From Deltaproteobacteria bacterium (GTDB lineage Bacteria > UBA10199 > JADGCS01): DNA of 64,000 bases. The first letter of the stretch is position 1, and every line of letters begins with the position of its first letter. The position numbers were made by a program, and so were the translations under genes. Shown here piece by piece: positions 41,703 to 53,793 of this stretch. The notes under the pieces were generated by a model. That model did no database searches. It had not been told where the DNA came from and saw only the letters and a list, made by a program, of their open reading frames with translations. The stretch lies in assembly GCA_015228875.1 (NCBI GenBank), contig JADGCS010000001.1:55886-119885 (forward strand). Direction: 5' to 3'.

Positions 41703-41924
41703 GGGGTTGTCCTCGCAAAAGTCTTTGTCCTACAATGTCTTGATGGTCTTTATTAAAGAAAAACTTAAAACCACAGAACGGTTGCAGCAACGACAAAGCT
41801 CAGGCAGGTCTTCTGACTTATGGGACTTGATATGATTTTATCAAGAGACGATTAAGGCAACCTTCCCATGTTTTGTCTGGCAAGCTAGCGCTTGGCGCAA
41901 CTACGCGACGAAATCTTCTGTTTT

Positions 41925-41967
41925 GCACGGGATGCACCCGCGCTCAATTGACTTTGAAATTCCCAGA
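41925..41967 (-). repeat. Repeat family A partial copy
   Basis: gcacgggatgcacccgcgctcaattgactttgaaattcc. Confidence 0.6.
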
Positions 41968-42096
41968 CACCAACACACAGTGGTTATACGCCCTACAACC
42001 CCATTTACAGCGGCGGGACCGCGCCGGATTTGCACCGGCTTCCCGTTTAATCCCCGAGGGGAACCTGATGTGTGGTATTTACACGGCGTTGTGATT

Positions 42097-48801: not shown

Positions 48802-50037
48802 ATGGCACAAATCAACAGTCATTATTTAAAACTCAAATCAGGTTATTTGTTTCCAGAGATTGGTCGCAGGGTGAGCGAATTTGCTCAAAAAAATCCTGCA
48901 GCCCGTCTCATCCGTCTTGGTATTGGTGATGTGACACGGCCGCTCCCCGATGCTGTGGTCAAAGCGGGCAAGGCTGCCTTTGACGAGCTGTCACGGGCCG
49001 AGACATTCAGGGGCTATGGTCCAGAAAAGGGCTATGAGTTTTTAAGACGGGCCATTGCAGAAAACGATTTTAAACCCCGTGGGGTTGTTGTTGATCCAGA
49101 AGAGATCTTTATCTCCGACGCCTCCAAGTGCGACACGGCCAACATGCAGGAGCTCTTTGATCAAAACTGCAGGGTGGCGATTCCCGATCCTGTCTACCCC
49201 GTCTATGTCGATACCAATGTGATGGCGGGCAGGACAGGCAGTGCAGACGGGCAGGGGAGGTACGAGGGGCTTCATTATCTTTCATCGGGTCCTGAGAGCG
49301 GTTTTCTTCCCCAAATTCCCCGAGAAAGATTCGACATCGTCTACCTTTGTTTTCCAAACAACCCAACGGGCGTTGTCGCCACAAAGGACGAGCTTAAAAG
49401 ATGGGTCGATTACGCACGGGCAAACGAGGCCGTTATTTTTTTTGACGCGGCCTACGAGGCTTACATCACCGATGAGCACATCCCTCATTCTATTTTCGAA
49501 ATCGAGGGGGCCAGCGAATGCGCAGTTGAATTCCGCTCATTCTCCAAAACTGCGGGTTTTACCGGCACGCGGTGCGCCTTTACGGTGGTCCCGCGGGCGT
49601 TGATGTGCCGCAATAGCCGCGGGGAAAAGGTTGCGCTTCACGCCCTGTGGCACAGGCGTCAGTCTACAAAGTTTAACGGTGTGAGTTACCCCGTTCAAAG
49701 GGCGGCGGAGGCCTGCTACTCGGACGAGGGTAAAAAAGAGATCAGGGAGTTGATCGCTTATTACATGGAAAATGCCAAGTTCATTCACCAAACCCTTTCA
49801 AAGATGGGGTTTGCGGTCTACGGGGCCATCAACGCGCCTTACATCTGGCTTAAAACACCACACGACACAGATTCGTGGGGTTTCTTTAACGAGCTTTTGC
49901 ACAAGGCCCATGTGGTTGGCACGCCCGGGGCCGGTTTTGGGGCCTGCGGCGAGGGGTATTTAAGGCTCTCCTCATTTGGCTCGCGTGCGGACATCGCAGA
50001 GGCCATGGAGCGGATCAGACAGATTTATGATATTTAA
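48802..50037 (+). CDS. dapL: LL-diaminopimelate aminotransferase
   Basis: N-terminus [20 protein letters not shown] is characteristic of DapL. Class I aminotransferase fold with [15 protein letters not shown]. Confidence 0.85.
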
Positions 50038-50038
50038 A

Positions 50039-50095
50039 TATATCATGTGATATTTTAAAATATCATACGATATTTGACAATAACATATGATATAT
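50039..50095 (+). promoter_or_regulatory. Three spaced ATATC-N4-GATAT palindromes, a candidate operator upstream of the HTH-MNT gene
   Basis: atatcatgtgatat, atatcatacgatat and atatgatatat lie within 60 bp in front of ORF 50124. Confidence 0.5.
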
Positions 50096-50123
50096 CGTAA
50101 AATCATAAAAAAGGCCATTCGCC

Positions 50124-50747
50124 ATGCAGTTTCGCAATCACCTCATCAACTTACTTGCCGACCCTGTCAAAATACGTGTGTATCAAGCATTATCTCTCCA
50201 CACTGTCGGCTTGACCGGCAGGGCACTGGGCCAGATCGTTGAAACCTCGCCTTTTAAGATCAATCAGGTCCTGAAATATCTGGTTGAACAGGGGCTTGTT
50301 ATCCAAACCGTCCTGGGGAAGGCCCATCGCTACAGCCTCAACCTCGAACACGTCTTTATCAAAAGTGCCATGATGGCTCTGCTCAAGTCTGAGAAAGACA
50401 TTTTAAAAAACATGGGGCGCATGATGACCAACAGGCTCTCCCCAAAGCCTCTGGCCATTATCCTTTACGGGAGTGTCGCGCGGGGAGACGAGGGGGCGAG
50501 GAGCGATCTGGACCTCCTTGTTGTCTTTGGAGACCGGCCCCCTTCTTCGAAGGTACTCATAAAAAAGTTTGAAGACATCCCCCTTATGTACGGCAATTTC
50601 CCGTCGATCACATGTGTTGGACTGTCTGACTTTCTGTCGCCAGACAGTGCCCACCAGGCGTTGATGAGGCACATTAAAAAAGAGGGTAAAAGCATTGCGG
50701 GTTTATCAGTCACTGCATTAATAAGCAAATATGGTCACAAAAGTTAA
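50124..50747 (+). CDS. Minimal nucleotidyltransferase (MNT) with N-terminal winged-helix DNA-binding domain
   Basis: LYGSVARGDEGARSDLDLLVVF matches the GS-x9-DxD nucleotidyltransferase motif. Confidence 0.7.
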   Translation: MQFRNHLINLLADPVKIRVYQALSLHTVGLTGRALGQIVETSPFKINQVLKYLVEQGLVIQTVLGKAHRYSLNLEHVFIKSAMMALLKSEKDILKNMGRMMTNRLSPKPLAIILYGSVARGDEGARSDLDLLVVFGDRPPSSKVLIKKFEDIPLMYGNFPSITCVGLSDFLSPDSAHQALMRHIKKEGKSIAGLSVTALISKYGHKS

Positions 50748-51135
50748 CACAGTCGCTGTTATAAAAAACGAATACAAAAGCTACAAAAAAAAGGCCGACC
50801 AGTTCTTTGCGGTTATGAACATGTGTCTCGAAGACCGAGAATGGGACGCTGTTTTTCTTAATGGCCTGCACGCGGTGATCAGTATCAGTGATGCCCTGTG
50901 CGTTTTTCAACTCGGGCAGAGGAGCACCGGGCGCTCTCATACCGACGCATCAAAACTGCTTCAACAGGCTTACCCCACGGCCGAAGGAAAAAAACGCGCC
51001 GGTCAGTTTTTTGAAATGATTAATATTAAAAACGAGGTCGAATACACACCACGCCTGTTTCAAGAAGGCGAGGCCCGCACGTTTTCCCTCAAAGTCAGCC
51101 GGTTTATAGAATGGGCGGTCAAGAAGCTGCCTTAG
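50731..51135 (+). CDS. HEPN-domain protein (partner of MNT)
   Basis: Overlaps the MNT stop. An R-x5-H motif (RSTGRSH) sits in a helical protein of about 130 aa. Confidence 0.6.
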   Translation: MVTKVNTVAVIKNEYKSYKKKADQFFAVMNMCLEDREWDAVFLNGLHAVISISDALCVFQLGQRSTGRSHTDASKLLQQAYPTAEGKKRAGQFFEMINIKNEVEYTPRLFQEGEARTFSLKVSRFIEWAVKKLP

Positions 51136-51282: not shown

Positions 51283-53793
51283 TTATTCTGTCACCTGCAA
51301 GACACCACCAATCACTGCAGGGGCATCTGTGACAGTTGGTTGTGTCCCGATATTTGGTACTGTATACAGCGAGGCATCCGGCAGGTCGTATGTGGTGAGG
51401 CTTAAACCCGCGCCTGTGCACTCGGAGGTTGCGACAGAAGTCATCTGTTGTTCTCTCTCAAGGGCCTTAACGTAGTAGGTGGTATTGGTTGCGATGTCTG
51501 TTACCGCTGCCCCGTTTGCAATCGCAAACTCGGGGACCCAACGTATAAAGACGTCACCATCCATACCCTCGGCACAGTTTACCTCGGTCCCCGTGTCTTC
51601 GTTGATGCACTTGCCCGGGATCCCCCAGAGGTCACCGTGTCCCTCGTAACTCAGATAGTACTTGGCCCCCGTGGTGTGTGTGTATTCAACCATGACGGGG
51701 TGATCGAAGGTCACAAATGTACCATTGGCATCTTTGATAAGGGACAGCTTTTGGTGATTCTCGGGGCCTGTCTCCCATGTGTAGTATTCATCGAGGTCCC
51801 AGATTTTAAACGTGCAGGTCTGGTTTGCGTCCCAGTCGCAGGCAAGGCCCGAGAAGGATGCGGGGTCGATGAGCGTCCCCATCCAGATCCCCCAAGGATA
51901 GGCCGCGTTGGTACTGGAGAGGACCACATCACTCGTGCCATGGATGAGTTGCATGGTGTCTTCGTTAAAACTGTAGCTTGCGTAATTTGTACCCGCAGCG
52001 AGGCTGCCGGGTGCGGTGTTAAATGCCAGGTCCTGATAGGACGTCCCCGCATCAGCGGCCCATGTGCTTGCCTCAAAGTAGGGATTTTCGGTTGTGATCG
52101 CTGTGGGATCGATACAGTTTTCGAAGCAGGCAAAGGACGCTGGGATTTCGGTATCACCGGGCATGACGTACTCATTGCGGTAGAAGATGACCTGCGTTAA
52201 ACCGGTGAGGGGGATGAGTTCGTTATTTGCGTTTCTCAATTTAACGCGCCCATGACCGCCGAGTGATTCGGCCCAAAAGCCAAAGTCCCAGTCGTTATCA
52301 GTAAAGGTGATCACTACCGGTGTGATGTCTTCCCAGTACCAAGTGGTTTCGTTCATCTGCGCGACCTTGTAGAGTTTGTCTTCTGTGGCGTTCCATTCGA
52401 CCCGGTAGTTGGTGCAGCCGTTTTGATCACAACTTCCCCAGTTGAGGGGGACACCGGCAATCTCATCGAGGGTGACTGTGTCCCTTGTGTGCCTGACAAG
52501 CTTGCCCCCTGCTACAAAGAGTTCGTACTCCTCTTCTGCAGACTCGCCCCCAGGACCCCACGACATTTTTTGCACGGTATCACCCGATTCGAGGCTGACA
52601 TCGCCGTTTACCCACAGCCCCCAGTAACCGACATAACCGTGGTGGTCTTCGATGCCATCATTGTATTTTATCGGGAATCCTGAGTCCAGTTCAAGACGCG
52701 CCCCGGGAGTCTGTGATGTTTCATGGTGGTAAAGACTGTATCTAAAGACAATGTCGTGATAAGCCGCGCGTGAAAGACACAATTCGGAGCTATCGGCGGC
52801 ATTGGACCTGTAAAAATAGTTGTCGTTGTAGGCAAGATTAAATGTATCGGACTTGTTGGTGCTGTATAAAGTTTTAAAAAGGTCCATCGAATCATACGTC
52901 TCTGTGTTGGAGATAGTCCCCGAACCTGCAGAACCATTGGTGTTGCGGGCCATGGTCACTGCCTGCGTGTATTCTGCATAACCAAAAGAACCCGTGTTAT
53001 AAAACTGCAGCATGATCTGGCCGTCGTCGTCGTATGTGCGCATGTGACCTGTCATGACCTGCGGCCCCCTTGAACCATCATCTAAAACATCGTAACCGGC
53101 AAAGTTCATGGTGAAGATACCAAGGGGGTTTGCCTCGGAGGCGGATTCTTCGATCTCCAGTCTGGCATCAATGAACATGGCTGGTTCTGAATGAAATTCG
53201 TCGCCACTGCCTTCTTGCTTAAACCAGACCGAGACAACCTGTCCTGATGTGTCCGTCTCGCGATAGGAGTTGACGGTCCAGAGTTCATACTCCGGTGCTG
53301 AGCCGCTTGAGGATTGATCTTGTGAGCTTTGTCCCGCCGACTGGGCATTATCCTTGTTTGACGAGCACTGTGTGGTGTCGATCATCGCCAAATAATCACC
53401 CGCGTTGAGCATGGCATAGTATTGAGTCTGGTCTGTCATGCAGAGGATCTGGTTGATGAGATCGAAAACCTCTGCCGATCTTTCGTGCACATAAGTGAAG
53501 GTTATGTCGTTGTGATAGTCAGAATCGGCGGGCAAGTCGGCTACGGCGTACTGAAGCTTTGTGAGAGTCTTTGCAAGACCCGCGCTGATGGCAGTTGACG
53601 CTGTGGTCTGGGCATCGACAACGCTGACCTGTTCTGCCAGGGTGAGTGACTGCGAGGCAAGTCCCACAGCCCCCGCGCCGCCTTCGGTGGTCGCCGAAGT
53701 ACTGATGGCACTGCCCCCGCCGCCAAAACAGTGCAGGATGAGCATGGCCAGACACACGATGACGAGGCTCAACAATTGTTGGTGTTTTTTCAT
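51283..53793 (-). CDS. Large secreted hypothetical protein (836 aa)
   Basis: Signal peptide MKKHQQLLSLVIVCLAMLIL, G/S/T-rich, no recognisable catalytic motif. Confidence 0.5.
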   Translation of the reverse strand: MKKHQQLLSLVIVCLAMLILHCFGGGGSAISTSATTEGGAGAVGLASQSLTLAEQVSVVDAQTTASTAISAGLAKTLTKLQYAVADLPADSDYHNDITFTYVHERSAEVFDLINQILCMTDQTQYYAMLNAGDYLAMIDTTQCSSNKDNAQSAGQSSQDQSSSGSAPEYELWTVNSYRETDTSGQVVSVWFKQEGSGDEFHSEPAMFIDARLEIEESASEANPLGIFTMNFAGYDVLDDGSRGPQVMTGHMRTYDDDGQIMLQFYNTGSFGYAEYTQAVTMARNTNGSAGSGTISNTETYDSMDLFKTLYSTNKSDTFNLAYNDNYFYRSNAADSSELCLSRAAYHDIVFRYSLYHHETSQTPGARLELDSGFPIKYNDGIEDHHGYVGYWGLWVNGDVSLESGDTVQKMSWGPGGESAEEEYELFVAGGKLVRHTRDTVTLDEIAGVPLNWGSCDQNGCTNYRVEWNATEDKLYKVAQMNETTWYWEDITPVVITFTDNDWDFGFWAESLGGHGRVKLRNANNELIPLTGLTQVIFYRNEYVMPGDTEIPASFACFENCIDPTAITTENPYFEASTWAADAGTSYQDLAFNTAPGSLAAGTNYASYSFNEDTMQLIHGTSDVVLSSTNAAYPWGIWMGTLIDPASFSGLACDWDANQTCTFKIWDLDEYYTWETGPENHQKLSLIKDANGTFVTFDHPVMVEYTHTTGAKYYLSYEGHGDLWGIPGKCINEDTGTEVNCAEGMDGDVFIRWVPEFAIANGAAVTDIATNTTYYVKALEREQQMTSVATSECTGAGLSLTTYDLPDASLYTVPNIGTQPTVTDAPAVIGGVLQVTE

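Follow-up and report, generated by a model that had tools for sequence, protein, structure and literature searches.

Does a HEPN/minimal nucleotidyltransferase (MNT) operon carry its own repressor? Such pairs are regarded as the most abundant prokaryotic toxin–antitoxin family, and the regulation of their operons otherwise lacks an obvious DNA-binding component. The question is raised by a two-gene module in the window analysed here, a 64,000-nucleotide (64-kb) stretch of contig JADGCS010000001.1 from a Deltaproteobacteria bacterium. Its first gene (gene A) encodes an MNT protein with an N-terminal winged helix-turn-helix (wHTH), its second (gene B) encodes a HEPN protein, and an array of ATATC-N4-GATAT palindromes covers the promoter. 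We consider it probable that the pair is a toxin–antitoxin-like module of the Class II (PF05168-type) HEPN/MNT group, whose MNT has gained an ArsR/SmtB-like wHTH and is likely its own repressor. Autoregulation by the wHTH-MNT, suggested in a preliminary description of this DNA, finds strong comparative support: the palindromes recur across homologous operons with conserved sequence, copy number, 20-bp phasing and placement relative to the promoter.

Domain architecture of the gene pair

The module comprises the following coding features.

50124–50747, plus strand: gene A, 207 amino acids, with stop codon TAA at 50745–50747
50124–50351, plus strand: N-terminal wHTH of gene A, residues 1–76, ArsR/SmtB-like, with recognition helix SPFKINQVLKYLVE at 50247–50288
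50352–50747, plus strand: MNT domain of gene A, residues 77–207, with GS at 50469–50474 and DLD at 50505–50513
50731–51135, plus strand: gene B, 134 amino acids, a PF05168 or 'Class II' HEPN helical bundle, with R64-x5-H70 at 50920–50940 and K100-x4-Y105 at 51028–51045

The two genes overlap by 17 nt (50731–50747), and the position of the gene B ATG inside gene A suggests translational coupling. The GS-X10-DXD signature of gene A is intact (G116-S117, ten residues, D128-L-D130), and residues 106–191 match both PF18765 (35.8 bits, cut-off 26.9) and PF01909 (29.4 bits, cut-off 21). The N-terminus gave only below-gathering Pfam matches, to HTH_20, TrmB and MarR_2. Two NCBIfam models likewise scored below their cut-offs, namely ArsR/SmtB HTH_metalloreg (NF033788; 27.7 bits, cut-off 55) and MntA_antitoxin (NF047752; 28 bits, cut-off 60), the latter aligning only with residues 107–139. 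A protein search returned 32 homologues of 181–226 amino acids at 37–53% identity, across which the recognition helix T-S-P-F-K-I-N-Q-V-L-R (S42, F44, K45, N47) and the motif Y-G-S-x-A-R-G ... S-D-x-D are invariant or nearly so. One homologue is annotated by JGI as 'nucleotidyltransferase/ArsR family regulator'.

An AlphaFold2 model of gene A, built on the homologue alignment, has a mean predicted local distance difference test score (pLDDT) of 87.6. Its elements run α1-α2-α3-αR-β-β wing, long connecting helix and MNT α/β core, and the ArsR/SmtB winged-helix topology α1-α2-α3-αR-β-wing is present in the predicted secondary structure. Foldseek comparison of this model with the PDB returned Shewanella MntA from MntA–HepT complexes (6m6u_F, 7bxo_A) and the repressors 3cuo, AntR (6uvu), 1r23 and CadC (1u2w), these four at target template modelling (TM) scores of 0.6–0.74, together with SmtB (1smt). 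The interleaving of MntA matches with matches to ArsR/SmtB/MarR-type repressors, taken with the model, indicates that the wHTH-MNT fusion is real.

For gene B, a word-indexed protein search found a single homologue (62% identity), and phmmer comparison of the protein with the PDB gave nothing useful. Exhaustive profile searching yielded 728 cluster representatives of the gene B family, 244 of them below 1e-10. PF05168 (HEPN) is matched by 95 of the 117 aligned family members (best 2.4e-11), and PF01934 (DUF86) and PF08780 are absent among the 25 Pfam families listed for these members. The family profile also matches the HEPN protein AF0298 (2hsb; E = 0.0015). The best PDB matches of the gene B AlphaFold2 model (pLDDT 97.1) are all HEPN: 2hsb (TM 0.74/0.78, root-mean-square deviation 2.4 Å), ST0689 (1wol), the sacsin HEPN, TT1696 (1ufb) and the toxin SO_3166. 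The R-x5-H motif reads R64-STGRS-H70, followed by T-D72. Arginine occupies position 64 in 92/117 aligned sequences (lysine in a further 12), and H70 is kept in 115/117, K100 in 116/117, Y105 in 114/117, D54 in 114/117 and H47 in 106/117. The preliminary description, drawn from the letters and open reading frames, had thus given the coordinates, the overlap and both the GS..DxD and R-x5-H motifs correctly, and its winged helix fused to MNT and its downstream HEPN protein both hold up in models and profiles. It had named loss of the RNase motif on proper alignment as fatal to its toxin–antitoxin call; the motif is retained.

A phased palindrome array at the promoter

The region between dapL and gene A contains two promoter-like elements and a series of palindromes in register, here treated as candidate operators.

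50074–50103, plus strand: main sigma-70-like promoter P2, TTGACA (50074–50079), 18 nt, TAAAAT (50098–50103), an 11/12 match
50033–50061, plus strand: possible upstream promoter P1, TTTAAA (50033–50038), 17 nt, TAAAAT (50056–50061), a 9/12 match, with O1 in the spacer
50020–50033: degenerate in-phase operator copy CAGATTTATGATAT, keeping only the right half-site GATAT (50029–50033), within the last five codons of dapL
50040–50053, no strand: operator O1, ATATCATGTGATAT, a perfect ATATC-N4-GATAT
50060–50073, no strand: operator O2, ATATCATACGATAT, a perfect ATATC-N4-GATAT and the symmetry centre of the entire array
50080–50093, no strand: operator O3, ATAACATATGATAT, with one mismatch (ATAAC), filling the −35/−10 spacer of P2
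50100–50113: decayed operator O4, AAATCATAAAAAAG, in register, keeping only the left half-site AAATC, just 3′ of the −10

The three promoter 14-mers that had been described are all present, two exact (50040, 50060) and one with a single mismatch (50080). The upstream gene is dapL, as had also been stated (TIGR03542, 597 bits, cut-off 365); the accompanying claim that one 14-mer overlaps its stop codon fails, the TAA at 50035–50037 being clear of all three. It is the inter-site palindrome GATAT-N6-ATATC (50029–50044) that straddles this stop. Start-to-start spacing of the 14-mers is exactly 20 bp, and the array belongs to a 40-nt direct repeat family at 20-bp spacing. With in-register remnants on both sides, half-site orientation therefore alternates about every 10 bp across roughly 85 bp, and the array as a whole is nearly palindromic about O2, with arms of 41 nt. 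Since P1 repeats the layout of P2, the promoter/operator unit seems to have been duplicated in tandem.

Across the entire window, five matches to the 14-mer with at most one mismatch were seen against 0.99 ± 0.95 expected, and three of the five are clustered here. Elsewhere in the 64 kb there are no further good copies, and a wider regulon within the window was rejected, as the additional one-mismatch matches (19299 and 35477) are no more than chance expectation. A first-order Markov model of the AT-rich segment itself (22% GC) puts the probability of at least three copies of ATATC-N4-GATAT at 0.0004. If transcribed from dapL, 50015–50123 would form a long AU-rich RNA hairpin (−28.2 kcal/mol, z = −6.35), and a promoter-like mirror site, TTGTCA-17-TAAAAT, lies on the minus strand at 50080–50052. 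The palindromic nature of the array probably accounts for both.

The same 14-bp palindrome (consensus ATATCATATGATAT) stands ahead of about a dozen homologous operons in other contexts, usually in two copies per upstream 100 nt and sometimes in three (loci L002 and L012). For 13 operons, matches to its core TCATATGA with up to one mismatch are 51-fold more frequent in the upstream 100 nt than elsewhere in the same loci, and among these operons the copies are 20 bp apart in all loci having at least two sites. Site pairs at −35/−15, −34/−14, −32/−12, −51/−31 and −42/−22 are found, and the window has −81/−61/−41. The layout in relatives is a TTGAC/TTGAA −35, a first site directly after it, an AT-rich −10-like hexamer and then the next site. 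O3, within the P2 spacer, occupies the slot of the distal operator in these operons, and O4 lies where relatives hold a well-conserved second operator. The window operon has lost the promoter-proximal site of its relatives. It has gained two upstream sites, and their apparent source is a tandem duplication of the 40-bp promoter/operator unit.

Conservation extends to Acidobacteriota relatives at 25–28% identity, which carry two TCATATG cores 20 bp apart. Half-sites also appear to vary with the presumed reader: loci with the recognition helix T-S-P-F-K-I-N-Q have GAT(A/T)T, whereas four loci whose helix reads [VA]S[VT]FK with variant residues (L001, L010, L011 and L171) have GTTAT/ATAAC. With so small a sample and no correction for phylogeny, the covariation is no more than suggestive. 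The putative operator code is unusually clear and conserved.

In L170 (about 1455–1515), two perfect ATATCATATGATAT operators stand 20 bp apart and the second contains the ATG of the wHTH-MNT gene, so that the mRNA would have little or no leader and repression would act directly over the start. In the Hadarchaeota loci L015, L017, L021, L023 and L024, the CATATG palindrome was not found; some 60 nt ahead of their wHTH-MNT genes, these loci have another repeated motif in common, TGAAGTTAAC ... TTGAAG/ACTTCA, around a TATA-like box, TTTAAATA. The operator has presumably been retargeted there, at an archaeal promoter.

These features suggest a scheme in which wHTH-MNT dimers would bind the 14-mers side by side and cooperatively on one face of the DNA. 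Bound O3 would repress the operon from within the −35/−10 spacer, and O1 and O2 would extend the complex over the duplicated upstream promoter copy. HEPN produced by coupled translation would act as an RNase-type toxin through R64 and H70. The MNT domain would hold it inactive by nucleotidylylation of Tyr105, by complex formation or by both; the former would parallel MntA, which AMPylates a tyrosine of HepT (PMC7641770; PMC13000451; PMC11586414). By this analogy, we give modification of Tyr105 by the MNT an even chance. Loss of antitoxin activity, whether by ATP depletion, antitoxin decay or perhaps phage infection, would then both free the RNase and derepress the operon.

A further extension of the scheme, which we think unlikely, would have the wHTH-MNT supply in cis the 'missing' DNA-binding component of MNT–HEPN modules and, with bridges formed by HEPN dimers, build a higher-order repressor on operators phased by two helical turns. 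Transcription would then read both the toxin:antitoxin ratio and ATP-dependent nucleotidylylation of Tyr105, and a CATATG-centred code, spanning Deltaproteobacteria-like metagenome-assembled genomes to Acidobacteriota, would be retuned by recognition-helix changes. If true, this would amount to conditional cooperativity in an enzymatic (type VII-like) toxin–antitoxin system.

Class assignment and rival explanations

The preliminary description had matched the pair to the HepT/MntA type VII arrangement. The arrangement stands: an MNT gene with GS-X10-DXD lies upstream of, and overlaps, a HEPN gene, there is an Rx4-6H-type motif with a conserved Tyr, the MNT superposes on MntA and the HEPN protein superposes on SO_3166. 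The family label does not, and HepT/MntA proper was rejected: the toxin is not DUF86/PF08780 and has no RX4HXY, with D at His+2, and gene A does not reach the NCBIfam cut-off for MntA. Where HepT is a DUF86/PF08780 protein with RX4HXY, the toxin here is a PF05168-type HEPN in which R-x5-H is followed by x-D/E and the conserved Tyr lies 35 residues downstream. A further difference is the additional 76-residue wHTH of gene A; in MntA no DNA-binding domain is predicted (PMC4621449; PMC7641770), yet the Shewanella protein is reported to bind its own promoter (PMC4621449). Makarova et al. 2009 noted that neither MNT–HEPN partner resembles a transcription factor and speculated that a DNA-binding component acts in trans (PMC2701414).

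Judged from profiles and models, the pair fits the Class II HEPN/MNT group (PF05168 with PF01909) that was defined, though not tested, by Yao et al. 2020 (PMC7641770), who remarked on a conserved, potentially adenylylatable Tyr in its toxins. An adjacent MNT with GS-X10-DXD, a conserved HEPN Tyr and the lack of RX4HXY are all found here, and the PF05168-type partner is recognized at the family and fold level, with the window protein alone below detection. The Class II representatives AF0298, ST0689 and TT1696 ('HEPN-T') share the HEPN subfamily by profile and fold, the MNT Pfam families, the gene order and the conserved Tyr. The module differs from them in its clear R-x5-H, which is not a Class II consensus in Yao et al., and in an MNT bearing an N-terminal wHTH together with a defined putative operator.

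Gene A matches the PADLOC PDC-M05A model PDLC04368 (E = 3.1e-10, residues 6–134, the wHTH region included, no curated cut-off being given), and all 32 homologues match PDC-M05A as well (best 6.6e-16). Other loci share the wHTH-MNT fusion, which characterizes a whole family already covered by the PADLOC PDC-M05A models. PDC-M05 is an archaeal-enriched, unvalidated combination of a nucleotidyltransferase and a HEPN protein, proposed from its embedding in defence loci (PMC12988326). Its A profile covers the wHTH region and some HEPN partners match PDC-M05B, although these are a minority of the gene B family (12, 8, 7, ... of 117 per model) and gene B itself gave no PDC-M05B match at E ≤ 1. The similarity to PDC-M05 is distant (E 1e-10 to 1e-16), and accounts of that candidate mention no regulation.

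Some members of the family join both proteins in one chain. These wHTH-MNT-HEPN fusions of about 330 amino acids (P0086, P0115, P0128 and P0139) fall into at least four 50%-identity clusters and keep the R-S-x4-H and K-N-x-V-E-Y motifs. FhepTA, the fused MNT–HEPN of Shewanella (Nucleic Acids Research 2026, PMC13000451), resembles the present family in that the latter also occurs as both two-gene operon and single-chain fusion; unlike it, FhepTA is of Class I (R-φ-xxxH, adjacent Tyr) and has no wHTH. The wHTH-MNT-HEPN fusions are a Class II counterpart of the FhepTA fusions. Type II antitoxins and ArsR/SmtB autorepressors offer a second comparison: the antitoxin has an N-terminal DNA-binding domain, repeated palindromes overlap its own promoter, and the wHTH fold superposes on 3cuo, AntR, SmtB and CadC. 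In contrast to type II antitoxins, the neutralizing part here is an enzyme domain rather than a disordered toxin-binding tail, and unlike true ArsR/SmtB members gene A stays below the NCBIfam cut-off for that family.

We found no described wHTH-fused MNT or operator of one in the literature searched, the coverage of which was incomplete, so that absence is unproven. The locus is not a new kind of system and would not surprise a specialist, the fusion being already within database models. With its relatives it is a clean case, combining an explicit wHTH, a 14-bp putative operator, 20-bp phasing, apparent helix/half-site covariation and both split and fused forms, and it offers a convenient entry point to regulation and neutralization in Class II HEPN/MNT (PDC-M05-like) modules.

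Several observations weigh against a self-repressing Class II toxin–antitoxin module. The gene B protein alone has no direct match in Pfam, NCBIfam or PADLOC, and its His+2 position, the canonical site of the acceptor Tyr, is D in 71/117 and E in 22/117 of the family. Class II toxins overall are reported to have no RX4H consensus, and it has been suggested that their toxin chemistry may differ (Yao et al. 2020, PMC7641770). Experiments on this family, or on any Class II HEPN/MNT pair, were not found in the literature searched. At the array, the promoter-proximal operator that relatives keep well is decayed in the window operon. Half-sites could pair within one dimer as ATATC-N4-GATAT or, between sites, as GATAT-N6-ATATC; the former is favoured as the dimer site because the central CATATG is strongly conserved. 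Under the same Markov model, three copies of any 5-N4-5 palindrome family have P = 0.07, so that with the value of 0.0004 the local statistics are by themselves only moderately strong; the decisive argument against chance is conservation across homologous loci. The module's GC content (0.48–0.49) equals the window average, and composition therefore gives no sign of recent transfer. Around it in the window lie housekeeping or unknown genes rather than a defence island.

Of the rival explanations, an anti-phage (abortive-infection) role changes the purpose and not the parts: the wHTH-MNT would silence HEPN and the operon until infection, and the HEPN RNase would be the effector. The matches of gene A and its 32 homologues to PDC-M05A, of some HEPN members to PDC-M05B, and the derivation of PDC-M05 from defence-locus embedding (PMC12988326) all point this way, as does the adjacency of the L003 and L005 pairs to PIN/HicB and PIN/Phd toxin–antitoxin modules. 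The antiviral role of PDC-M05 is unvalidated (PMC12988326), however, the window HEPN is not among the PDC-M05B matches, and the neighbours are metabolic or housekeeping genes in the window, L001, L002, L170 and L171; we regard a defence function as possible but doubtful. It is improbable that the pair is instead a two-subunit nucleotidyltransferase, in which HEPN would be a non-toxic substrate-binding subunit comparable to the C-terminal domain of kanamycin nucleotidyltransferase, the target would be a small molecule or another macromolecule, and the wHTH would still autoregulate. Homology links the HEPN fold to substrate-binding domains of pol-β-type nucleotidyltransferases (PMC3710099; PMC2701414), single-chain fusions do exist, and Class II toxins are reported to lack an overall RX4H consensus (PMC7641770). 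Yet R64, H70, K100 and Y105 are kept in 79–99% of subfamily sequences, fused forms included, and domesticated, fused HEPNs usually lose such residues (Anantharaman et al., PMC3710099); the patchy, context-independent distribution and the overlapping two-gene layout are also those of toxin–antitoxin modules.

The nucleotidyltransferase toxin of AbiE is paired with a wHTH antitoxin, a precedent for reversed roles, with the MNT as toxin, in the manner of the tRNA-modifying AbiEii/MenT nucleotidyltransferases, and HEPN as antitoxin. This was the original MNT–HEPN prediction of Makarova et al. 2009 (PMC2701414), but it runs contrary to all tested HEPN/MNT pairs. Here the antitoxin hallmarks, a DNA-binding domain and the 5′ gene position, sit on the MNT, and gene A matches PF18765/PF01909 and MntA structures, which makes a reversal very improbable. 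Least credible is a purely structural array, whether a stabilizing hairpin or terminator at the dapL 3′ end or a repeat of the repetitive extragenic palindrome (REP) or miniature inverted-repeat transposable element (MITE) type, rather than an operator. The predicted hairpin is stable and the array starts within the 3′ end of dapL, but the hairpin is not followed by a U-tract, terminator calling gave nothing at this site, the array matches no Rfam family and the motif is not beyond chance elsewhere in the window. The motif follows the wHTH-MNT gene, and not dapL, into about a dozen unrelated contexts, retaining its sequence (not just pairing potential), its 20-bp phasing and its −35/−10 position. 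An RNA element as primary function was rejected on the lack of a U-tract and Rfam match and on this conservation with the wHTH-MNT gene.

Genomic setting and distribution

In every close-family locus examined (L001–L012, L167–L171), the wHTH-MNT gene has a gene of the HEPN family directly downstream in the same orientation, overlapping or abutting it, and the MNT-then-HEPN order also holds in more distant relatives from Acidobacteriota, Thermoplasmata and Hadarchaeota. The flanks vary by locus, with genes for methylmalonyl-CoA mutase, hisS, carboxyl transferase, dCMP deaminase, ATP synthase and other toxin–antitoxin pairs. As part of the overall picture that we consider probable, the module would be a self-contained, horizontally mobile two-gene unit. 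Nearly everything recovered by a scan of metagenome contigs was a distant MNT relative; the one close locus that it contributed, L087, appears to duplicate L012. Further close loci were obtained through exact-protein matches.

The wHTH-MNT type reaches further in Acidobacteriaceae, whose loci L025–L086 encode many wHTH-MNT-like proteins of 200–220 amino acids without a HEPN partner recognized by the gene B family profile. In L041 (2360–3434; Granulicella sp. S156), the next gene overlaps and encodes a 153-amino-acid helical protein with the motifs G-H-H-Q-K and K-K-R-N-A-T-S-Y, probably a more divergent HEPN, so that the wHTH-MNT/HEPN architecture would be broader than the family analysed. At L003 (599–1268) and L005 (1–585 and 1302–1996), other toxin–antitoxin pairs (PIN/HicB-like and PIN/PhdYeFM) beside the module form small toxin–antitoxin clusters.

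The window itself holds one copy of each gene, with no second MNT or HEPN gene of these families in the 64 kb, and its module is isolated between dapL and an orphan open reading frame of 836 amino acids. The latter (51283–53793, minus strand) and the HEPN gene are convergent. The N-terminus of its product is hydrophobic and signal-like, neither Pfam nor NCBIfam gave any match, and it is probably a large orphan secreted or surface protein. Further upstream, at 41786–42083 on the minus strand, lies a cobalamin riboswitch (RF00174), matched over its full length at 94 bits (gathering score 31.5).

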